Virus record (IMG/VR): IMGVR_UViG_3300026549_000041
Coordinates: 79,101-143,100 of that record
Strand: one strand, 5' to 3'
Length of the DNA stretch: 64,000 nt
Source: a virus
Lineage: Duplodnaviria; Caudoviricetes
Shown here: piece after piece, positions 2,633-50,800 of the stretch
Layout: each line of letters starts with the position of its first letter
How positions within the stretch are numbered: position 1 is the stretch's first letter
Translations under genes and position numbers: made by a program
The notes under the pieces: generated by a model
What the model saw: only the letters and a program-made list of their open reading frames with translations
Told to the model about the DNA's origin: nothing
Databases searched by the model: none

Positions 2633-2800
2633 ATGTTGGAAATTTTAGGAGAAGAGTGTGAACTGTTAAAGATTTGCAATTGTAAAACAGCGGCGTGTCG
2701 AGTTAGTCCACCAGATGAAGGGTGCTATTATTATAGATATTTTAAAAAAATAATTGAAAGAGTTGAAGAAATAAAAAATAAAGAAGGTAATGATACATGA
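2633..2800 (+). CDS. small Cys-rich protein (55 aa), not in ORF track
   Basis: GAGGT RBS, MLEILGEECELLKICNCKTAACRV...; stop overlaps the dnaE start (ATGA). Confidence 0.6.
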   Translation: MLEILGEECELLKICNCKTAACRVSPPDEGCYYYRYFKKIIERVEEIKNKEGNDT

Positions 2801-4127
2801 GTTATTATAGTCTGCATTGTCATACGGAATACTCAAACATCCGTTTTCTCGACAGCACAAATAAACTAAAAGATTTAATTGACACAGCCATTTCTCTCAA
2901 AATGAAAGGAGTGGCTGTATCAGACCACGAAGCTCTTTGTGGATGGATTAAAGCAATTCAAATTCAGAAGAAACTTAAAGAACAAGGTTCTGATTTTCGA
3001 ATATTTCTTGGAGATGAAATTTATTTAGTTGATTCAATTGAAGATGTAAGAGACAACTATATTCCTAGACAAACAAAATTTTATCATTTTATTTTAATTG
3101 CCAAAGACGAAATTGGTGGTAAACAGATTCGTCAAATTAGTTCTAAAGCATGGGAAAATAGCTTTTATACTGGAAAAATGTGTAGAACTCCTATTGCGAA
3201 ACATCAATTAGAAAGCATTATTGGAGATGAAAAAGGACATATAATCGCACAGAGTGCATGTATCGGATCAGAGTTAGCACATTGGATACTTCAGGATAAT
3301 CCTATTAAGTGTTTAGAATTTATTGATTGGTGTCAGGATATCTTTTTGCCTGAAAATTTTTATTTAGAAATGCAACCTAACGATTGTGATGAACAGGTTA
3401 GAGTAAATCAGGTAATAATTAAAATAAGTGAACAATTAGATATTCCTTACATTATAACAACTGATGCTCATTATTTGTCTGCTGACCAAAGAGATGTTCA
3501 TACTGCTTATTTAAATAGTAGAGAAGAAGATAGTCGTGAGACTGGAGAATTCTATAGAACATGTTATCTTATGGATGCAGAAGAAATTCATCAATGGATG
3601 GATAAACAAATTGGTGCAGATAAAGTTGATATCGCTTTAGATAATACTTGTAAGATTGCTGATAAGATTGAATTTTTTGATTTGAATCATACTCAAATTG
3701 TGCCTAAAGTGCCTATTCCCGAATTTGAAATGAAACATTTTTTTTCAGAAGTTTATGATGAATGCGAGTATATAAAAAAATTTGCTTATTCAGATGATAT
3801 TCATGATAGGTATTTTTTATATTTAATTGAAAAAGGATGGTTGGAAAAAGAGTATAACGAAGATTTATCTAAAGAAGAAATAAACAAAATGCTGCATCGT
3901 ATTGATGTAGAATTAAAAGCTGTATGGTTATCTAGTGAAAATATACATGATAAAATTTCAAATTATTATATTACCGCATTATTTATTGAACAAAAAATAA
4001 TGTGGGAAGATGCAGAATCTTTGGTAGGTGTATCTAGAGGTTCAATTGCATCCTTTTATACAGCTTATTTGATAGGTCTTCAGCAGATAAATTCTTACAA
4101 ACAAAACATTCCATATTGGAGACACCT
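2797..4127 (+). CDS. dnaE: DNA polymerase III alpha (family C), exon 1 (PHP domain to ...IPYWRH-L)
   Basis: LHCHTEYS, SDHE, TTDAHYL and SRGS motifs. Frame stops right after WRH; exon ends in U (CAC CT|). Confidence 0.9.
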
Positions 4128-5255
4128 TAAATAATAATATTTCCTAAGTTTACTTGCCTTATAGAATGAGGTGAGTATGTTGAATGAAATAGATTTGAAA
4201 ATGATTACCATGAAGGAACTTGGGTTTAGTAGTGCAGAAATTGCGCAAATGTTTGGACGAAGTAAAAGTTCTGTCATTTGTGATGTACGTAATCAAACTG
4301 AACAAAAGATTGATAAAAGAATTTGGACAGTTGACGATTTGTTCTTTCATAATATTGATTCTGAAGCTAAAGCTTATATATTAGGTTTTATAATGGCTGA
4401 TGGGTGTATATATGATAAAAGATTAGAAATAACATTACAAGAGTCTGATAAATATATAGTGCAATTTTTCTTAAATGCGATGCATAGTAATAATCCATTG
4501 AGAAAAAATATTATTGAAGATAAAATATATTATAGTTTTGCGATACAAAGCGAACAGGTAATTGTAGATTTATATAAATTAAATGTTACAGAAAAAAAAT
4601 CTTTAACATTAAATCCTCCTCCAGATTATCTAATTCCTGATAATTTATACCATCATTTAGTAAGAGGATTTTTTGATGGCAATGGGAGTATATGGTTTGA
4701 TAAATCTGTTAACAATTATAAAATGAATATAGTATCTACAAAACAAGTATTAGAACATTTCAGAGATAAAATGGGATGGAGTCATAATACAATCAGACTA
4801 GCAAATAAAAAAGATGTACCTGTATATAGAATGGATTATAGTGGGAATAATTTGGTTGCAAAATATTTAAATCAGCTTTATGATGATGCATCTATTTATT
4901 TAAACCGAAAATATATTAAATATATAGATTGTAAAAATAGAAGTGGTAAGTAAATAAGGAAATATTATTAAGGGCTGTGCTTTGGTAACAAAGTATTGCG
5001 TAACTGGTGAACTTTTATCTAAAAGGTGTATATTCAACGCAATCAGTAAATACAGGAAATGGTATTGAATGAATATGCTAACAGGGGAAGTCTAAGTTTG
5101 AAAAAATACGATAATCCTGTGCCAAGCTTGTTTTATAACAAGAAGGTCAAACGACTATTATGTAGGGTGGAGATAGATACCATTCGAAGCGCCAGTTCTC
5201 CTTATATAAGGAGTGAGATATAGTCTAGCCTTTATAGAAATATAAAGTATAAGCG
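4128..5255 (+). mobile_element. group I intron dnaE-I1 (1128 nt) with LAGLIDADG ORF
   Basis: U|TAA 5' junction and terminal G; core elements ACGACTAT (~5151) and GATATAGTC (~5217). Splicing gives CT|A = Leu and restores WRHLHESRPEMP. Confidence 0.85.
4171..4953 (+). CDS. intron-encoded double-motif LAGLIDADG homing endonuclease with N-terminal HTH
   Basis: YILGFIMADGCI and LVRGFFDGNGSI motifs; ORF bracketed by an imperfect inverted repeat (4132-4158 / 4945-4970). Confidence 0.85.
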   Translation: MSMLNEIDLKMITMKELGFSSAEIAQMFGRSKSSVICDVRNQTEQKIDKRIWTVDDLFFHNIDSEAKAYILGFIMADGCIYDKRLEITLQESDKYIVQFFLNAMHSNNPLRKNIIEDKIYYSFAIQSEQVIVDLYKLNVTEKKSLTLNPPPDYLIPDNLYHHLVRGFFDGNGSIWFDKSVNNYKMNIVSTKQVLEHFRDKMGWSHNTIRLANKKDVPVYRMDYSGNNLVAKYLNQLYDDASIYLNRKYIKYIDCKNRSGK

Positions 5256-5280
5256 ACATGAAAGTAGACCAGAAATGCCT
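5256..5280 (+). CDS. dnaE: dnaE exon 2 (25-nt micro-exon, (L)HESRPEMP)
   Basis: A CAT GAA AGT AGA CCA GAA ATG CCT supplies the conserved R..MP segment preceding the catalytic DxD. Confidence 0.85.
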
Positions 5281-6309
5281 AAGTAACATTGGGCTTTGGT
5301 GATGAACCGTGCCAACGGGTGTACAGTTTTAAATTGTGCTAACGGTATCAGTTAAATAAGCAAAGATGAATACGCTGACTAAGAGAGCCTACGGTCTTTC
5401 GTAAGATAGCAGGTAATACCGTGCGAAATAATTATCTGCTCTATAATTTCTAAAAAGGAGGAAATTATATGAATGGAGATTATAGAGTAATTGAATTAAC
5501 TAATAATATCAATAATAAAAAATATATTTTAATTACACAATCAGACCTTAAAGATGAATATTTTAAAGATGAAATACTAAAAAGATTAATTACTATTGCC
5601 CTTCCAGAAAATGTATCAGAAGAAGTATTGATATCTGGTACTAAAGAAGAATGTTATCAATATTATAATCAGTATAGAAGTGATAATAGAGTTATATATA
5701 ATCCTGAATATTACAATATTCCAGAATCACAATCTGAAATTGAAGATTATCAATTATATATTGATAAAATAAATAAAGAAAATTATAAACAATGGAGGCG
5801 TAATAATAATTATAAATATCAGACAGAACTTTTTAAACAACGACAAAGTGTGTATTCTAAAGGTGAAAACAATCCAATGTATGGTAAAAAGCATTCTGAA
5901 GAATCAAAAAAGAAAATGTCTGAAAATCGTAAAGGTCTTACTTGTGGAGAAAAGAATGGTAATTATGGTAATACAGGAGAAAAAGCAAAAAATGGAAAAC
6001 CTGTTTATCAATATGAAGATTCTGATATGACCAAATTAATTCATAGATTTAATACTATGGAGCTTGCTTTAGAGTATTTAGGATTAAAAGGTCATTCAGG
6101 AATAATAAAAGCAATTAAAAATAAAGAATTATATAAAGGATATTATTGGAGCAGATAAGGAAACGTGTAACGACTATTCCGTAAGGAAGTACAATCAGAG
6201 ATAGGCACTGATTGGAAGTGTCACCACTAGCACCATTAGTGCTAGGAGAGATAGTCTAGACCCGCTGTTAAATCAGCGTTAAAGTACCAAGAAATTGGGG
6301 GTGTGACAG
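5281..6309 (+). mobile_element. group I intron dnaE-I2 (1029 nt) with GIY-YIG-like/NUMOD ORF
   Basis: CCU| paired by IGS GGGC; AACATT pairs with exon-3 GATGTT (P10); ACGACTAT (~6170) and GATAGTC (~6250) P7 elements; terminal G. Splicing gives EMP|DVDID. Confidence 0.85.
5469..6158 (+). CDS. intron-encoded degenerate GIY-YIG-like protein with NUMOD3 and NUMOD1-like DNA-binding repeats
   Basis: YRVIELTNNINNKKYILIT N-terminus, GENNPMYGKKHSEESKKKMSE (NUMOD3), KPVYQY...YKGYYW C-terminus; AAGGAGG RBS. Confidence 0.7.
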   Translation: MNGDYRVIELTNNINNKKYILITQSDLKDEYFKDEILKRLITIALPENVSEEVLISGTKEECYQYYNQYRSDNRVIYNPEYYNIPESQSEIEDYQLYIDKINKENYKQWRRNNNYKYQTELFKQRQSVYSKGENNPMYGKKHSEESKKKMSENRKGLTCGEKNGNYGNTGEKAKNGKPVYQYEDSDMTKLIHRFNTMELALEYLGLKGHSGIIKAIKNKELYKGYYWSR

Positions 6310-8862
6310 GATGTTGATATTGATTCAGAAAAATCTAAAAGACAAGCTATCATTGAAGCAACAAGAAAGAATTTTGGTGAGGACAAGGTTCTAAATATTT
6401 GTGCATTTAGAACAGAGGGAGCAAAATCAGCTATTTTAACTAGCGCTAGAGGATTGGGAGTTAGTAATGATGAAGCCCAATATATTGCTAGTTTAATTCC
6501 TTCTGTACGTGGAAAATTAACACCGCTTTCTGTAATGGTATATGGAGATGAAGATAATAAACCAAATATAGAATTTATTAATGAATGTAAGAAATATAAT
6601 AGATTGATTGAAACGGCATTAAGTATTGAAGGAATGGTTTGTGGAAGAACAATTCATGCATCGGGAGTTATCATTTTTGAAAATCCCTATTATGAATTAA
6701 ATTGTATGATGAAAGCCACTAACGGACAGCCAACAACCCAATGGGACATGGATGATTCAACATATGCTGGTGGATTAAAATATGATTATTTAACAATAAA
6801 TAATCTTGATGCTATGCACCAATGTATGAATTTGTTAGTTGAATATGGTTATATTGATTGGCAAGGTTCATTATTAAAAACTTATAATAAATATTTTCAT
6901 CCAGATGTATTAGATTATTCTTCTGAAAAAATGTGGAAAATGGCTGAAAATCATGAGATAGTAAATCTTTTCCAATTTATGACTGACGTTGGTGCTCAAG
7001 CTGTAAAAAAAATCAAACCACGTTCACTTACAGAACTTGGTGTTGCTAATGCAGTTATGCGTCTTATGAGCGGAGAATCTGGTGGGGAACAGCCTCTTGA
7101 TATATATGTTAAATATAAAAATAATATTCAAGAATGGTATGATGTAATGGATAAATACCATCTGACCTCAGAAGAAAAAGATATAATAAAAAAATATCTT
7201 GAACATGCTTCTGGTATGTCTACTATGCAAGAAGATGTTATGAATCTTTCAATGGATAAAAATATTTCTAACTATTCGATGAAAGAAGCGAATGTTCTTA
7301 GAAAACTAATTGCAAAAAAGAAAGTTGCTCTTCATAAACAGGCAGAAGAAAACTTTTATAAAAAGGGTTTAGAAAATGGAACATCTCAAAATATGTTGGA
7401 TTATGTATGGAAAGAGTGTGTTAAACCTCAGTTGCAATATTCATTTTCTCTCCCTCATATCCTTGGATATTCAACAATTGCTGTTCAAGAAATGAATATG
7501 GCATATAAATATCCTATTATTTATTGGAATTGTGCCAATCTTATTGTTGATAGTATGTCTGACGAAGAGCTTGATGGCAGCACGAATTACGGTAAAGTAG
7601 GTATTGCAATTAATAATATGATCCAATCTGGTATTAATGTAACCCCTCCTTTAATTAATGAAGCTAAGTTTGGATTTACTCCAGATGAAAAAAATAATCG
7701 TATTATCTTTGCATTAAAAGCTATGAATGGTATTGGAGATGACATCGCTCAATCAATTATTCAAAATCGTCCTTTTAAATCTATGGAAGATTTTGCTACA
7801 AGAATGATTGATACAAAGATTATTAAAAACTCACAAATGGTTAAGCTGATAAAAGGTGGTTGCTTTACTGAGATTGATTCTGAAGATAAAACAGAAACCA
7901 TGAAGTGGTATTTGTCTAAGTATTGCATTAATCCTGTTGCTAGTTTGACGCTATCTCAATTTAATAAAATTGTAGAGCATAACCTGATACCAGAAGAGTT
8001 AAATCTTGCAGTTAAAATGGTTAATTTTAAAAAATATGTTCTCGATGATGAAGGATTATACGAAAAATGGATTGACCCGACTAAACCTAAAATTCCAAAA
8101 AAAGGTTATCATGATGGACATTATATTTTAGATGAACCTTCTCAAGAATTTTTTAAAGAACATTTTACTGAAGATAGTATTGTAGATGTAGTTGGTGGAT
8201 TTTATGTGTTATCTGAAAAGAAATTCATTAAAGAAATTGATAAGAAGATAGAACCGTTAAAAGAATGGTTTAATTCAGATGATGCTATTAATAAATATAA
8301 TCAAGCTTTATTTGACGAGGCGTGGAATAAACATGCAAATGGTACAACTGATGCTTGGTCTATGGAATCTTTAACATACTATGATAAAGACCATGAATTA
8401 AAAAATACTCCTGAAGAAATATATGGTATTGTTAATTTCTTTGAACTTCCAGAAGAACCGATTGCATATGAATTTTATACAAGATATGTGGATGGTAAAC
8501 CAAAAGCAGTACCTAAATATACTATTTTTCGTATTGCAGGAACGGTTGTTCAAGCTGATAATAATCATCATTCTGTTGCATTATTAACTACACATGGACT
8601 TGTAAATATTAAATTTAGTAAAGGTCATTATGCTTTTTATAATAAAACAATTTCAGAAATTGGTGAAGATGGTAAAAAGAAGACAATTGAAGGTAGTTGG
8701 TTAAAACGTGGAAATAAATTATTAGTAAGTGGTTATAGAAGAGGAGAACAATTTATTCCTTGGATATACAATGACACAATTTATAAGCATCGAATTAATT
8801 TGATTGAAAAAATAAACGAAGACGGAACATTAGAATTAAAAGCTGAAAGAGCAAAGGTATAA
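6310..8862 (+). CDS. dnaE: DNA polymerase III alpha exon 3 (DVDID catalytic motif to C-terminus); spliced product 1302 aa
   Basis: In frame with ORF 6454..8862; HASGVII, KYDYL, LFQF, YSFSLPH and GIG (HhH) motifs. Confidence 0.9.
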   Translation, partial: DVDIDSEKSKRQAIIEATRKNFGEDKVLNICAFRTEGAKSAILTSARGLGVSNDEAQYIASLIPSVRGKLTPLSVMVYGDEDNKPNIEFINECKKYNRLIETALSIEGMVCGRTIHASGVIIFENPYYELNCMMKATNGQPTTQWDMDDSTYAGGLKYDYLTINNLDAMHQCMNLLVEYGYIDWQGSLLKTYNKYFHPDVLDYSSEKMWKMAENHEIVNLFQFMTDVGAQAVKKIKPRSLTELGVANAVMRLMSGESGGEQPLDIYVKYKNNIQEWYDVMDKYHLTSEEKDIIKKYLEHASGMSTMQEDVMNLSMDKNISNYSMKEANVLRKLIAKKKVALHKQAEENFYKKGLENGTSQNMLDYVWKECVKPQLQYSFSLPHILGYSTIAVQEMNMAYKYPIIYWNCANLIVDSMSDEELDGSTNYGKVGIAINNMIQSGINVTPPLINEAKFGFTPDEKNNRIIFALKAMNGIGDDIAQSIIQNRPFKSMEDFATRMIDTKIIKNSQMVKLIKGGCFTEIDSEDKTETMKWYLSKYCINPVASLTLSQFNKIVEHNLIPEELNLAVKMVNFKKYVLDDEGLYEKWIDPTKPKIPKKGYHDGHYILDEPSQEFFKEHFTEDSIVDVVGGFYVLSEKKFIKEIDKKIEPLKEWFNSDDAINKYNQALFDEAWNKHANGTTDAWSMESLTYYDKDHELKNTPEEIYGIVNFFELPEEPIAYEFYTRYVDGKPKAVPKYTIFRIAGTVVQADNNHHSVALLTTHGLVNIKFSKGHYAFYNKTISEIGEDGKKKTIEGSWLKRGNKLLVSGYRRGEQFIPWIYNDTIYKHRINLIEKINEDGTLELKAERAKV

Positions 8863-8863
8863 A

Positions 8864-11113
8864 ATGAGTGTAAAAGTTAAAGCTGAAATAGAAGGAATTA
8901 GATTTTATAGAGACCAATGGGGCATCATTGTATGCTCCATTGATAAAGTATTAAAAGGTGATTTTATCGGTGATAAAAATGGAATGATTTTTAAAGGCAC
9001 TATGCCTGAACCAGTATTGGGTGCGACTTATATAATCATTGCTGATTATGTAGAAGACCCTAAATGGGGTAGACAATATAATATTAAATCAATTTATAGT
9101 GATGTGTCATTTGATAAAAATGATAAAAGCGGTAGACAAAAATTTTTGCTCAATCTTTTTACTCCTAGTCAAGTACAAGCTATGTATGATGTATATGATG
9201 ACCCATTTTCTGTATTAGATGCAGAAGATGTAGAAAAGCTTGTGCAAATTAAAGGCTGTGGTATTAAAACAGCAGATTTGTGGATTCGTAAATTTAAAAA
9301 GAATATTAATATTGCAAGAATTTTTGTTGAGCTTGAAGATTATGGTTTAACTAATAATATGATTAAGCGTTTGATGGACAGATATAATTCACCAGATTTA
9401 ATTATAGAAAAAGTTAAAACAAATTCATATGTTCTTGTTAATGAAGTAGATGGCATTGGTTGGAAAAGAGCAGATGAAATTGCACTTGCTGGTAATATCA
9501 AACCTGATAGTCCTATGAGAATTGGTGCTTATATAGTTTATTATCTTAATTTATGTGGTGAAAATGGTAATTCGTGGATTACTCCAGATGAATTATTGGG
9601 AGCTATTCTTGATAATCTTGGGGAAGAAATCCCCGATGAAAATATTACTATGGCTATTAGAGACCTTGGTAATAAATTATGGTGGAATGAGGATAAAGAT
9701 AAGATTGGCTTATCTAAATATTATAAGATTGAATATAGAGTTGCTGAAGAGTTGATTAGAATCAGAAATGCTGAATCCAATATTTATTGTAATGATTGGA
9801 GAATGCGTATTGAGCATCTTGAAAGAGTACAAGGATGGGATTTTACTGAAGAACAGATGAATGGTATTGAAGCTGTTTTAAATAATAATGTTACTGTTAT
9901 CCATGGTCTGGCAGGAACTGGAAAAACTTCTGTAGTTTCAGGCGTTCTTGAGGCTCTTAATAATTATTCAAGTGTAATGTGTGCATTGTCTGGAAGAGCC
10001 GCTTCAAGAATGAGTGAGATTACTGATAAAACAGGATATACAATTCATAGACTTCTTGGTTATCCTAAAGGGGCAAATGAATATCAAGGATTTGAATTTA
10101 ATCAAGATAATAAATTACCTTATAATCTATATATTCTTGATGAAATTTCAATGGTCGATGCTAAAATCTTTTATTATTTATTAAGAGCAATTCCAGATGG
10201 TGCTAAATTAATTTGTCTTGGAGATTCGGGACAATTGGAAAGTATCGGATGTGGTAATGTAGCTTATGATATGATTCATTCTGCTGAAATTCCTACAATT
10301 GAATTAACCAAAATCCATAGACAAGCCGCTAAATCAGCTATTATTACACAGAGTGTCGCTGTTAGAAATAGTAAACAAATAGTACCCAAAGATTGGGTTG
10401 GCACTGAGACAAGAGGAGAACTTCAAGACCTAGAACTTCACTGTTATTCTGATAGTAGTAATACATTTTATGAAGTAATGGAAATTTTTTCTAAACTGAT
10501 GGCTCAAAAAGATTTTAATATTATGGATTGCCAAATTATTGTTCCAATTAAAACCAGAGGGGACGCTTGTACTTATAAAATAAATAATACAATTCAAGAA
10601 TTATATAATCCTGCTTCAAAGAATAAAAAAGAAATAACAAGGTTATCAAATAATAATCCTTTTATTCTTAGAGAAGGAGATAAGGTAATTAACACAGTTA
10701 ATAATTATAGACTACAAACCCCAATCTATAATGGTAATATTGGGACAATTAAATCAATCAGTTATAATGAAGAATTAGATTCAAGAATTATTACAATTGA
10801 TTTTATAGGAATTGGGAATGTCGATGTTCCCGAAGATGCATGGAATGGGATTGAACTGGGATATGCTATTACAGTTCATAAATACCAAGGCAGTCAGAGT
10901 AAATATGTGATTTTTGGTTTGGATTTTTCGTCATATGCTCTTCTCACTAGAGAGCTTGTTTATACTGGAATTACCAGAGCACAGAAAAAATGTTATCTAA
11001 TTTGTCAAACAGGGGCACTAAGATATGCAACTGCACAACAAGGTGTTTCTACAAAACAAACCCACCTTCAGGATTGTTTATATGAAGTAGCACATCCTAA
11101 GTTGATTTTTTAA
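8864..11113 (+). CDS. recD2: RecD2-like SF1B helicase
   Basis: HhH repeats, GLAGTGKT Walker A, DEISMVD, GDSGQL, IHRQA, YAITVHKYQGSQ, YTGITRA. Confidence 0.9.
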   Translation: MSVKVKAEIEGIRFYRDQWGIIVCSIDKVLKGDFIGDKNGMIFKGTMPEPVLGATYIIIADYVEDPKWGRQYNIKSIYSDVSFDKNDKSGRQKFLLNLFTPSQVQAMYDVYDDPFSVLDAEDVEKLVQIKGCGIKTADLWIRKFKKNINIARIFVELEDYGLTNNMIKRLMDRYNSPDLIIEKVKTNSYVLVNEVDGIGWKRADEIALAGNIKPDSPMRIGAYIVYYLNLCGENGNSWITPDELLGAILDNLGEEIPDENITMAIRDLGNKLWWNEDKDKIGLSKYYKIEYRVAEELIRIRNAESNIYCNDWRMRIEHLERVQGWDFTEEQMNGIEAVLNNNVTVIHGLAGTGKTSVVSGVLEALNNYSSVMCALSGRAASRMSEITDKTGYTIHRLLGYPKGANEYQGFEFNQDNKLPYNLYILDEISMVDAKIFYYLLRAIPDGAKLICLGDSGQLESIGCGNVAYDMIHSAEIPTIELTKIHRQAAKSAIITQSVAVRNSKQIVPKDWVGTETRGELQDLELHCYSDSSNTFYEVMEIFSKLMAQKDFNIMDCQIIVPIKTRGDACTYKINNTIQELYNPASKNKKEITRLSNNNPFILREGDKVINTVNNYRLQTPIYNGNIGTIKSISYNEELDSRIITIDFIGIGNVDVPEDAWNGIELGYAITVHKYQGSQSKYVIFGLDFSSYALLTRELVYTGITRAQKKCYLICQTGALRYATAQQGVSTKQTHLQDCLYEVAHPKLIF

Positions 11114-11166
11114 CAAGTATATAATATAATAAAATGTAGAAAGATATAGATAAGGAGTAAATTAAT

Positions 11167-12393
11167 ATGATTAAAGTAGAAAATACGGATGTATATGGTT
11201 TCCAACACGCTACAAAAGCAGCAAGAAATCCCATGAACAGTTGGAATAAAAGTGATAGCGATTATTGCGGAGATATCAAAGATTGTGACGGATGTCAATA
11301 TGCCGAATATCCTAATATTTGTAATAATCCAATTGCTGATGGAGGAGATTATGTTATTGGTAAAAATGATTTAGACCTTATGCAACGTTTGTACAAAGCT
11401 GGTACTGAGCATAGAACATATGCAAGAATGATTTATGTATGGATGGATATTATGGCACCTCTGTACTGGTGGAAAGAAATGGACAGATATACAGTTGGTA
11501 AGTCTCAAGTATCATGTAGTACTATGCATCGCCTAACAGAAAAACCGTTCGATGTTTCAGACTTTAGTTTTGAACATTTAATTGGGAAAGATGAACGTGA
11601 ATATTTTGACCCTGTTATTGATGATGTTGAAGAGGTGTGGAAAACCATAGAACAATATCCAAATTATATGGTGAGTAATTTAGGAAATGTTTGGAGTATA
11701 AGGCGCAAGAAACAATTAAAGCCCTGTGTTAATTCATCCAATTATAAAAAATATGTATTATCAGGTAAAAATGTATATGCACACCGTTTAGTAGCAGAAG
11801 CATTTATTCCGAATCCGAATAATTTACCAGAAGTGAACCATAAGGACGGAAATAAGTGGAATAATTATGTTGAAAATTTAGAGTGGGTTACAAAGAGCGA
11901 AAACGCTTTACACGCATTTGAAAATGGTTTAAGGACGATTGATGGGTATACACGATATAAGGTAGCACAGACTGCTCATAAGTTTTCAGCAAAAGATGTG
12001 GAAGATATAAAGATATTATTTGAAGATGGGTGTACTAAAAGGGAAATAGCTGAAAGATATGGTTGTTCAGATTCTGTTATTTATAATATTGTAAATGGAA
12101 ATACATATATTCAGATTGATTTATCTCCGTATGATGTTGCACGTTTAACTGTCGAACATCTAAATCAATTAAGAGATATTTATTTAGAGACAAAAGATAA
12201 AGAAGATTGGTGGCAGTTAATTCAACTTCTCCCTTCGTCTTACAACCAAAGACGCACTATTTGTATGTCTTATGAGGTTGTATTTAAAATCATCAAGGAA
12301 CGTACAGGACATAGACTTGATGAGTGGAATGAATTTGTAGAGATTCTTAAGAATCTTCCTTATGTAAAAGAAATTATGGGTATTGAAAAATGA
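11167..12393 (+). CDS. ThyX-like (flavin-dependent thymidylate synthase fold) phage protein with an in-frame NUMOD4-HNH-HTH insertion
   Basis: RNPMNSW, APLYWWKE, SCSTMH N-part and LLPSSYNQRRT...HRLDEW C-part flank EVWKTI..YPNYMVSNLG and HRLVAEAFIPNP..VNHKDGNK.NN.VENLEW. The ThyX relationship is a tentative recognition. Confidence 0.65.
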   Translation: MIKVENTDVYGFQHATKAARNPMNSWNKSDSDYCGDIKDCDGCQYAEYPNICNNPIADGGDYVIGKNDLDLMQRLYKAGTEHRTYARMIYVWMDIMAPLYWWKEMDRYTVGKSQVSCSTMHRLTEKPFDVSDFSFEHLIGKDEREYFDPVIDDVEEVWKTIEQYPNYMVSNLGNVWSIRRKKQLKPCVNSSNYKKYVLSGKNVYAHRLVAEAFIPNPNNLPEVNHKDGNKWNNYVENLEWVTKSENALHAFENGLRTIDGYTRYKVAQTAHKFSAKDVEDIKILFEDGCTKREIAERYGCSDSVIYNIVNGNTYIQIDLSPYDVARLTVEHLNQLRDIYLETKDKEDWWQLIQLLPSSYNQRRTICMSYEVVFKIIKERTGHRLDEWNEFVEILKNLPYVKEIMGIEK

Positions 12394-27302: not shown

Positions 27303-27362
27303 GCTGGCATAGCACAGTCGGTAGTGCGTCGCATTGGTAGTGCGGAGGTCACGAGTTCGATT
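27303..27362 (+). pseudogene. 3'-truncated/degenerate tRNA-Thr(GGT)
   Basis: Acceptor 5' strand GCTGGCA, D-arm GCAC/GTGC, anticodon arm TCGCA-TTGGTAG-TGCGG, ACGAG-TTCGATT. The expected 3' CTCGT-TGCCAGC is absent. Confidence 0.75.
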
Positions 27363-27425
27363 TTCTTTGTTCTGTTATTAATTGTATAAGCCAAAAAATC
27401 ACCTCCAAAAAAGTAAAAAAAAATA

Positions 27426-47439: not shown

Positions 47440-47871
47440 CTTTGTATTTATTTTAGTTCGCTACACTAAAACGACTGATAAACAGTCCTCTATATTTCTA
47501 CAGAGAATAGACTATATCTTTATGTAAATATTATATTCATGTTTAATTCTTCATTTATTTCATTATAAAATTTTGATTTGGTAAAATCATCCATATTATC
47601 CTCCGATTAATATATTTAAATATAATATTTACATAATCACCTTTTCCAACTACCAATCGCTTGTAGTTGTACTTCCTTGCGGAATAGTCGTTGAGCGTTT
47701 TCCTATTCGGAACTTCGCTGCTGATTGCCCATTGTTACATTTATATATTTTTTAAACATTCACATTTAGATTTATTTCATTCTTATGTTGTAGTATATAT
47801 AACTTTAGGGGTTTCCAGCAATTAAATGATTTATTTTATATACATCACTGTATATAGACACTATTTTATTA
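47440..47871 (-). mobile_element. group I intron TMP-I3 (432 nt) with HEG remnant
   Basis: GACAU| pairs with IGS GTGTC; AAAATA pairs with exon TGTTTT (P10); CAACGACTAT / AAGATATAGTC core; terminal G. Confidence 0.85.
47520..47594 (-). pseudogene. 24-codon remnant ORF in an intron peripheral loop
   Basis: GGAGG RBS then MDDFTKSKFYNEINEELNMNIIFT*; enclosed by a 17-bp inverted repeat TATGTAAATATTATATT. Confidence 0.5.
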
Positions 47872-50800
47872 ATGTCACCCTTTTTAAGATTTACAAATTC
47901 AGCACCATCATCACCAACAGTAAACCAATTACCATCACGGACAACTATCTCAGTTCCTAACTCACCTGTAAGGGCAGTTTGGTCATCGGGAAGTCCCCAT
48001 TTACCACCAGCATATGCATGATTAGAAACTACAGAGCCTTTAACAAATGCAGTACCATATGCATGAGCTGTACCATTTGCAAAATGCGCCCTATAATTTG
48101 ATGCTAATTCATTAGCTTTGTTAATAGCTGATTGAATACCAGATTTAAGAGCACTTAACCCAGAAGAAGAAAAATTAGCAACAACACTTACAGTTTTACT
48201 TTTAACAGAATCAATTGCACTTTTCATAGCTTGCGCATCATTAATTACTTGATTTTTACCTGCAAGCATAACACTAGGAGTGGCTTTTTTATTATCTAAT
48301 TCTTTTGTCTGTTTATTTACATCATCGCTACCTTTTTTAAATTCTTTTGAATCCATCCCAACTTCGGGTTTAGGATTTTGTTTATCAATTTTCTTATTCT
48401 CTTCTTGAACATGTTTTGCACCTTTATCAAAAGGAGAAGTGTCCATTGACGTAGTTACAACCTGATTAACTTGTTCTTCTGATATGGTTTTATTAATTTG
48501 TGTATTTGTTGTTGTGGTATCTTTAGGCTTGGGAGTATCGCCAGTTGTTTTTACATTTATATGAAGCTCTCCCTTTTTGGCTAATTCTAATAATTCTTCA
48601 CCAGTTGCGTCTGGTTCAAGCCCCCATTTTTGTTTAACTTCTTCAGGTAAATTAGCAATTGTGTTTAATTCTTCTTTAAACTCTTCATCAGCATCCCAAT
48701 TAAAATGAATATCTTTATGTTGAGCTGCATAATCTAATTTAGAATTAATATCATCAACAACTTTTTCAGCTGCCATAAATTGGTCAACTGTAATCGAATC
48801 ACCACTAATATTTGATTTATTTAATAAATTTACTCTATACTGTAATTGTGCTAATAATTGGTCTAAATATTGAACTTGAGTATCATCTACATTTGGACGT
48901 ATTTCTTTTAATGTGTTTATTTTTTCTTGTAAATAATCAACATTGTTTAATAACATGGGGTCAATAGTAAACTGTTCTGAAAAATCAGTTTTCCCCGCTT
49001 CTTTTGAATAAGAAGACAATTTATTTACAATATCATTAATATTCTTTTTAGATGTTTCTAATTCTTTAGAATCAAATACTTTAAAATCAAATATTTTTCC
49101 TTCAACAAATTCACGTTTCTTCGCAGCCATAAAATTTAATAAATCAGCCACTTGTTGAAGTTTTTCTGTTTTTACTTTAGGGTCTAGACTTGTGTCTTCA
49201 GCAAGAGATTGTTGATAACCCATGAGCTTCTGCATTGCATCATCAACTTCCCTTTCACTTTTAGGGTCTAAATTAATTTTTAATTCAGTACCAGTAGTTT
49301 CTTCTAATGCTTCTTTAGCAGAAATAGCCTTTTCTTTTAATTGCTCTAAAGAGAACAAAGGCTGGTCTAAATGAATTTCAAAGCCAGCATCAGCAGCTGC
49401 TCTTAAAATAGAATGGACACTTTCAATATCCATGCCTAACATTTCGGCTATTTGATAATCACCATTTTCAGTGAAATCGAACCAACCTTCTTCAAGATTG
49501 ACAAATTCTTTTCCAACTTCTTTTTGCTTATTTTGAATAGCATCAAAGAAATTCCAAACACCTTGAGAAGTAGTTTTACCATTAGCATCAACCGTAAAGA
49601 AATCTGCTATAGAATAACCACCAGTTCCTTCTATGTCTTTTGTAACTTCATCAAATTTTTCTTTTATTTTTTCAGCAGAAGAAGTCCAAGCATCCCAATC
49701 TTCATTTTCATCATTAAAAATTAAATCAATCCAACTTCTAGTCTTTTCACCAGCCCAACCTCGTTCAAGCTCATCTTTAACAGCGTCATATCCACTATAA
49801 ACGCTATTATACATTTCACGTTCGCCCTCACTATTCTGTTTAGACAACCATGTTTGATAAGCTGAATTAGCATTATTAAATGTCATTAATTGTTCATTTA
49901 ATTTATCAATATTATCTTGAATAGCCTGTCGCTGTTGTATAAAACCAGAGGTGTCTTCACCAGCTGCTTTAGCCTGAAGATATCCTTCTTGTAATTTATC
50001 TAATGCTTGATATTGTTCGTACATAGAAGAAGCATAATCAGCCTTGACCATAGCTTCTTGTTCTTGTCTTAATAAATATGCCCCTTGAGTATTTAAATGA
50101 TAACCATTTGCAGTTCTTTCTAATACCGAATCAAGATTATCACCAAAAGCAGCTCGTAATTCAGTTAATGTTTGTTCTGTTAAACCTGTACCTTTTGCAG
50201 ATTCAGCAAGAGCAGTATTTAATGTATTAAGAACTCCTATGGCACTTTCGACAGAAGAAGAAAACGCATTATATGAGTCAGAAGCCATATATGCAACATC
50301 AGCTGCATCTCCGTGAACAATTCCAGCAGTTACTAATGCATTAATTAAATTATCTGCATCAGCAGTAGTCCATCCCATTGCATCCATTAATGCCTTTAAT
50401 GCATCAGCATATTTTCCACTTGCATAAGTATTATCTTTAAGTGTCGCCTGAATATCAACTTTATCTGGATTTAATTTATATAATTTTTCGGCGGCTTTAT
50501 AAGCTTTCTTTTGTTCTTTGGTTAATTTACTTTGGGCTTTAGCATTATCTTTAAGAGTCTTTTTATCAGTCCCTCCAAATAATCCTTCTTTTTCTTCAGG
50601 CACAGGGATATCTTTAAATAATTCAACTGTATCTCTAAATTTATTTTTAGCGTCAACTAAAGAAGTATCTATTTTATCAAATAGAAGAGCGAATTGTCCA
50701 TTATCGCCAACTTTAAGAAAATCATTTTTAGCTTTAGTCGCTTCATCAAAGGCTTTACGTGCTTCATTAATTTTTTGAGTATCACCAGTAATATAAGCAT

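Follow-up and report, generated by a model that had tools for sequence, protein, structure and literature searches.

Two unrelated group I introns enclose a 25-nt micro-exon ahead of the PDxD motif of a phage DnaE polymerase and may form a linked cassette

Adjacent group I introns separated by small exons have been described in phages of Firmicutes. Several such introns with small internal exons interrupt Twort orf142 and phiNIT1 nrdE (rNDPL), and exon skipping was observed in SIOphi and Twort (PMC11878797). Two further systems bear on the mobility of neighbouring elements. In phage T4, MobE drives trans-homing of the nrdB intron, which carries the defunct I-TevIII, by co-conversion (PMC2790892), and in the Haloferax MCM-a/MCM-d inteins two active neighbouring nucleases hinder co-homing into empty alleles (PMC10643990). 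Here we describe two group I introns that lie 25 nt apart in the dnaE gene of a virus, in what we call the window, i.e. the whole 64-kb stretch of DNA analysed, which is the final part of a virus record of 143.1 kb. The locus shares with those of Twort, phiNIT1 and SIOphi the adjacent group I introns of a Firmicute phage and the small exon in a core gene. It differs from them in that the host gene encodes a family C polymerase and in that no linked nuclease pair has been described there. The polymerase introns of the Bastillevirinae, unlike those of the window dnaE, reside in phrog_17 genes, and for group I introns at the PDxD motif of DnaE no published precedent was found in our incomplete coverage of the literature. 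A micro-exon between phage introns is known from published work, and what is new is the catalytic loss under selection in the protein of the second intron, HEG2, together with its linkage to intron 1.

The window dnaE is flanked by a PD-(D/E)XK nuclease gene and a RecD-like helicase gene, and its nearest named relatives are the SPbeta-type yorL polymerases (~50% identity). Related dnaE loci come mainly from gut and rumen-type assemblies and from Clostridia bins, which points to a Firmicute host; the phage itself appears to be SPbeta-like, uncultured and of gut type. A near-consensus match to a sigma-70-type promoter (2538-2566, + strand, 11/12) lies ~230 nt upstream of dnaE, in a scan that performed overall at chance level, as did the terminator scan. 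Elsewhere in the window we noted a 408-aa ORF (11167-12393, + strand) with NUMOD4, HNH_3 and HTH domains in frame mid-ORF, a tRNA (27308-27369, + strand) near a sign flip of the GC skew at about 28 kb, and another group I intron (47488-47881, - strand; Rfam RF00028, 50.7 bits).

Removal of the two introns (4128-5255 and 5281-6309; Table 1) yields a 1302-aa frame with a single stop. The product has the PHP domain, the palm with PDxD, the fingers and the HhH domains of a family C polymerase. The Pfam profile DNA_pol3_alpha is matched from position 8 to 94 in exon 1 and restarts at 103 in exon 3, and the 8-position gap corresponds to the residues encoded by the micro-exon. Intronless relatives (L002-L004, 73-80% aa identity; L-numbers denote related phage loci) read the identical peptide without interruption, and SPbeta yorL, Taq DnaE and E. 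coli DnaE are colinear with the spliced window DnaE across the motif. In yorL (NP_046685.1), which shares ~50% identity with the first 300 exon 3 residues, the motif is likewise uninterrupted, unlike in the window gene. The junctions, the 25-nt exon and the 1302-aa product given by the initial annotation thus proved exact, as judged from the Pfam gap and the intronless alleles, and its proposed alignment to intronless DnaE bears them out. Its placement of the micro-exon at the catalytic motif holds insofar as the micro-exon encodes the eight residues preceding PDxD; exon 3 begins with the first of the two Asp codons and has the second as its third codon. These Asp residues are the catalytic ones in family C polymerases.

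Taken together, the sequence points to splicing to the 1302-aa DnaE. Unspliced RNA would run into a stop at codon 446 and RNA retaining intron 2 at codon 454, while skipping of the micro-exon shifts the frame, as had been predicted, and leads to a stop at codon 472. None of the enumerated alternative in-frame U|...G| junction pairs gives a peptide of the intronless type. Other splice sites, e.g. after U4128, are ruled out by the frame, the P1 pairing and the intronless alleles. Split polypeptides or inteins are ruled out by the in-frame stops after both 5' sites and by the eight missing residues, which are present only in the micro-exon. Exact spliced or skipped junction patterns had no match in viral contigs, a set that is mostly DNA and hence uninformative.

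Table 1. Coordinates of the split dnaE gene, its two introns and their reading frames in the window
Feature	Position	Strand	Description
dnaE exon 1	2797..4127	+	PHP domain and first part of palm; ends in U
Intron 1 (site +17)	4128..5255	+	Group I, 1128 nt; ORF in P1 loop; ends in G
Intron 1 P1 5' strand with 13-bp extension	4125..4144	+	Pairs with 4958-4974, beyond the ORF; U4127 pairs with G4972
Intron 1 ORF RBS hairpin (predicted)	4151..4177	+	12 bp; masks ribosome-binding site
HEG1	4177..4953	+	258 aa; N-terminal HTH and double-motif LAGLIDADG
Intron 1 ribozyme core	4977..5255	+	P2, P3, P3.1, P3.2, P4, P6, P7, one clear P7.x hairpin, P8, P9.0, P9
Micro-exon (exon 2)	5256..5280	+	25 nt; last base of Leu444 and codons 445-452; ends in U
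Intron 2 (site +42)	5281..6309	+	Group I, 1029 nt; without P2; P7.1 and P7.2; ORF in P6a loop; ends in G
Intron 2 P1	5277-5282/5289-5294	+	Folded core
Intron 2 P10	5285-5289/6311-6315	+	5 bp
Intron 2 ORF RBS hairpin (predicted)	5443..5468	+	Masks ribosome-binding site
HEG2	5469..6158	+	229 aa; GIY-YIG-fold domain, NUMOD3, C-terminal helical DNA-binding-type module
dnaE exon 3	6310..8862	+	Opens with Asp453 and Asp455 of PDxD motif; fingers, HhH domains

Both introns pair the 5' exon-terminal U with a G in P1, end in G, are precisely absent from homologous intronless alleles and fold into P1-P9 cores, with P3, P4, P6, P7 and P8, a G-binding pair in P7 and supporting covariation. For intron 1, 97% of the cells are paired and both-sided changes occur in 30/67 pairs (0/500 shuffles; slid controls 34-45%); for intron 2, covariation over eight alleles is seen in P3, P3.2, P7.2 and P9.1. 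P3.1 and P3.2 are present in both, and the subgroup IA2 marker, P7.1 plus P7.2 between P7 and P3', is represented by both hairpins in intron 2 and by one clear hairpin in intron 1. Rfam RF00028 matches neither of the two ORF-containing dnaE introns of the window; it does match ORF-less relatives in L272, including the site-42 intron, and in L151. The two cores show no detectable kinship beyond the P7 element and belong to different clades. Hence, of the claim that two independent homing elements met here, the separate origin is upheld by the unrelated cores, the different clades and the different nuclease families, whereas activity of both is not supported, given the missing catalytic residues of HEG2 and an Asn in motif 2 of HEG1, the protein of intron 1.

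CCU stands at the end of each 5' exon and GGG is available in each guide sequence, which permits cross-pairing, so that occasional exon skipping is chemically plausible, as in the Twort, phiNIT1 and SIOphi cases. The end of exon 1 can form 3 bp with the intron 2 guide (-2.1 kcal/mol), compared to -5.6 for the correct exon. The initial annotation further expected that shared exon bases would constrain the order of splicing. The weak P10 of intron 1 would take the first few micro-exon bases and P1 of intron 2 the last four; since the two do not overlap, the micro-exon imposes no evident order.

Spliced alignment was used to classify about 240 related dnaE loci. Five group I intron sites fall within 32 nt, at offsets +13, +17 (intron 1), +33, +42 (intron 2) and +45 counted from the Pro439 codon. 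In a census of 131 clusters at 90% identity, 106/131 contain intronless alleles only and 12/131 include site 42; both site-17 clusters (2/2) are double, but the association is weak, given that one of these clusters represents the lineage of the query itself. Doubles of the 17+42 type comprise, in the window lineage, the window, L005, L316, L065, L066, L067, L313, L314/315 and L317 (exon 3 not being reached in L066 and L317), and further L340-343 and L243. All of them have the 25-nt exon, and a 13+42 double (L272) has one of 29 nt. Two of these doubles carry compact ORF-less twin introns, namely L243 (6446-7140; 350 and 320 nt around the 25-nt exon) and L272 (3976-4590; 312 and 274 nt around the 29-nt exon). 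Single-intron alleles exist for both sites (L063, L068 and L069, and many for site 42), ORF-less site-42 introns are common, and the site combinations vary freely. The 17+42 combination seems to have arisen about three times, since the core tree, calculated with FastTree and with L243 on a long branch, assigns different introns to L341 and L243. This distribution is expected from repeated invasion of a conserved active-site sequence and speaks against both a switch and mutual exclusion. That each intron destroys the homing site of the other, as proposed initially, is not supported as a barrier: doubles are frequent and of repeated origin, and the two introns of the pair diverge together as one block. 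The best reading is that the micro-exon is a by-product of hotspot crowding, without a regulatory role.

More interruptions were noted downstream in dnaE, near residues 514-525, about 680 and about 830 (L068 ~4424-5400, L070 ~3686-4325, L329, L330 and L337). The ORF of one site-42 intron (L320, 2914-3690) translates only if TAG is read as Gln.

HEG2 resembles I-TevI and the SegE-like GIY-YIG enzymes (PDB 1LN0, 1MK0; PF19835) in its fold and its NUMOD3-type tail. It superimposes on the I-TevI catalytic fold with Z 8.0 and an rmsd of 2.4 Å over 81 residues, and relatives at ~40% identity carry PF01541/PF19835. A Foldseek search with HEG2 gave nothing at E 0.001, the best match being I-TevI at E 0.009, and the single-sequence fold reached a pLDDT of 41. 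In GIY-YIG enzymes the Tyr serves as general base and the Glu binds the metal (PMC3045582). Unlike in I-TevI and the SegE-like enzymes, both are replaced in HEG2, where Ile8, Leu21 and Tyr66 occupy the positions of the GIY Tyr, the YIG Gly and the helix Glu. The GIY Tyr and the Glu are replaced in 5/5 cluster representatives of the HEG2 clade (SH 99, with long branches), with Glu to Tyr in all five. All members are full length, at identities down to 41-45%. Among close alleles pN/pS is 0.09-0.17, and for the nuclease-fold domain alone it is 0.07 between window and L316 (p 8e-5); between distant members this domain shows no measurable constraint, and the most conserved part of the protein is C-terminal. 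Read from sequence, the catalytic residues of HEG2 have thus been lost while the protein is under purifying selection.

In every traced locus (window, L005, L316, L065, L067, L313, L314/315 and L317; P0122, nearly identical to the L065 protein, was left out of the tracing) the degenerate HEG2 lies behind an intron 1 with HEG1, in hosts that are 52-100% identical. Canonical relatives of HEG2 occur in single site-42/45 introns; the exception is a more distant canonical relative in the double L341, whose first intron has no ORF. The doubles L341, L243 and L272 carry one nuclease ORF or none, and no double allele with two canonical nucleases was found among the about 240 dnaE loci. Outside dnaE, L012 holds a group I intron with a HEG2-related ORF (~2770-3920), and genome C1, outside the window, has a group I signature with a canonical-looking GIY-YIG ORF in a seeming capsid gene (~10011-11146, - strand).

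HEG1 has two LAGLIDADG helices, with a Pfam match below the cut-off. Of its metal ligands, Asp75 is present in motif 1 and Asn169 stands in motif 2, so that the two are not both acidic. Asn169 is shared by window, L005, L316, L065 and L066; the motif 2 Asp is kept in L067, L313, L314 and L317 and in the singles L068 and L069. Asn for Asp in a LAGLIDADG motif would weaken or abolish one active site, and HEG1 of the window subclade may therefore nick or be inactive. It is under purifying selection (pN/pS 0.09-0.45). Genome C1 has, outside the window, a HEG1-like LAGLIDADG gene (5810-6865, - strand) that seems to be free-standing and encodes Asp in each of the two motifs.

Several observations suggest that the intron pair moves or descends as a unit. 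Doubles and intronless relatives are intermingled in the host tree. Over the stretch made up of the micro-exon and the 17 nt of exon 1 next to intron 1, window and L065 show 0/42 differences compared to 99/570 outside (p 8e-4), whereas L065 and its intronless sister L078 show 9/42 compared to 46/570 (p 0.008); splice-site pairing explains only a few of these 42 exon bases. The intron 1 cores, the intron 2 cores and HEG2 branch in similar orders within the window lineage, and L063, which is nested among doubles, has secondarily lost intron 2 and most of HEG1. Close alleles carry mosaic versions of HEG1, which points to recent exchange. HEG2 seems younger than the host split (dS 0.39 vs 1.02), so the block was not always inherited intact. 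The synonymous divergence of HEG1 from L065 equals that of dnaE, and vertical descent with losses thus accounts for part of the pattern with no need for active homing. Moreover, owing to their common ancestry, the doubles are not independent observations. The best reading is that of an old cassette of two introns, equipped with a single nuclease and its disarmed partner; inheritance or copying of the block would include the micro-exon.

A complex model of HEG1 and HEG2, calculated with alignments built in this analysis, scored 0.73, compared to 0.00 for the best of 3 controls. This mark is attained by 58/80 solved complexes and 2/110 mismatched pairs, and blind-picked neighbouring genes passed in 7/44 tests of the predictor. 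The runs have at least 31% of the contacts in common, with a partner pLDDT of at least 67. In the modelled interface, HEG1 3-28 (the N-terminal helix) contacts HEG2 15-17, 36-43, 77-85 and 91-105. Compared to the remainder of the domain, the interface positions of HEG2 show stronger conservation among clade members (p 0.008, in a partly circular test), and several are clade-specific (77, 79, 85). On the HEG1 side, positions 15 and 17 (Leu/Ile and Phe) are common to all doubles and differ from the singles L068 and L069, these two proteins being the whole contrast set. The model thus suggests that HEG2 probably binds HEG1, while a role of HEG2 in joint homing is a more tentative proposal, slightly short of even chances.

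The explanation we favour, if by a modest margin over even odds, is that a hotspot pile-up has turned into a cassette with one nuclease, in which HEG2 is kept as a partner of HEG1. The anatomy, the hotspot, the linkage, the catalytic-residue loss and the purifying selection are taken from sequence and the contact from the model; the splicing, the homing and the job of the partner are what we infer. The codons ahead of the DnaE PDxD constitute a hotspot for mobile group I introns, in which two unrelated introns landed 25 nt apart and may thereafter have acted as one cassette. In the RNA, each ribozyme would splice itself out to give the 1302-aa polymerase, with intron 1 probably spliced first as it is finished first. 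In the DNA, the 25 nt between the introns would leave too little room for repair to stop there, so that a cut empty allele would copy intron 1, micro-exon and intron 2 together, and a single nuclease would suffice for the spread of both introns. HEG2 would have lost catalysis and retained, under selection, the fold and the DNA-binding tail, most likely for binding the N-terminal helix of HEG1 as an accessory arm or regulator. Taken furthest, this would amount to a two-subunit homing machine from different nuclease families, in which HEG1 cuts or nicks, HEG2 docks as DNA-binding arm or regulator, and the intron-exon-intron block spreads as one without double-cut interference. This extension is speculative, and we hold it to be somewhat less probable than its negation. 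No natural heterodimer of LAGLIDADG and GIY-YIG-derived proteins, nor a complex between the nucleases of adjacent introns, was found in the incomplete literature searched. A one-way block may exist, with intron 1 hiding a long GIY-YIG site. An I-TevI-like nuclease cutting 23-25 nt upstream of site 42 would hit site 17, which is regarded as a numerical coincidence.

The alternative that survives best, although we consider it unlikely, is a plain pile-up, in which intron 2 hitch-hikes on intron 1 and HEG2 serves a separate function (as autorepressor, in DNA binding, or in aid of intron 2 as maturase or RNA chaperone) without contacting HEG1. It accounts for the linkage, the identical exon block and the lost catalysis, agrees with the strong conservation of the C-terminal part of HEG2, and has a precedent in the T4 nrdB intron that depends on MobE (PMC2790892); for the maturase variant, a LAGLIDADG maturase is known from a bacterial intron (PMC3984707). 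However, it predicts neither a passing complex model against zero controls nor cassette-specific residues on both modelled surfaces, and the frequent site-42 introns that lack an ORF indicate that a maturase is no general requirement. Improbable is the view that in the window subclade both proteins are no longer homing nucleases and, within a vertically inherited cassette, aid splicing or prevent exon skipping, alone or together. Asn169 of HEG1, present alongside continued purifying selection, and the possible CCU/GGG cross-pairing at both introns would fit. Against it stand the ORF-less twin introns of L243 and L272, the intron 1 of L063 with its ORF deleted, the HEG1 mosaic among close relatives, which indicates recent exchange, and the older cassette members, which keep both Asp. 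The idea of an on/off control of polymerase synthesis through the micro-exon, by its regulated skipping or by ordered splicing, put forward initially as a replication switch, is highly improbable: the stop after skipping, the weak pairing of exon 1 with the intron 2 guide and the skipping seen in SIOphi and Twort speak for it, but no regulatory input was found, most relatives are intronless here with freely varying combinations in the rest, the correct exon pairs more strongly, and the cores of introns 1 and 2 are dissimilar. In this last respect the window pair differs from the Twort pair, whose cores are not dissimilar.

The preferred cassette shares with T4 nrdB/mobE a dead intron nuclease carried by the cut of its neighbour. 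In T4, MobE is free-standing and I-TevIII is defunct, whereas the helper in the window resides in an intron 25 nt away and HEG2 has kept its full length, evolves under purifying selection and is predicted by the model to bind this helper. With the Haloferax MCM inteins the cassette shares the presence of two closely spaced mobile elements within a replication gene, and the lack of doubles with two canonical nucleases fits an escape from interference of the Haloferax type. In practical terms, such genes are missed by annotators, and many truncated DnaE entries stop at these sites. Natural alleles exist in every state, i.e. empty, with either intron or with both, and with or without ORFs, and the partner idea, involving two small proteins and a 2.2-kb locus, is directly testable. 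More generally, the locus bears on the coexistence of two selfish elements at neighbouring sites, to which a cassette, with a pseudo-nuclease partnered with the enzyme of the other intron, may be one solution.
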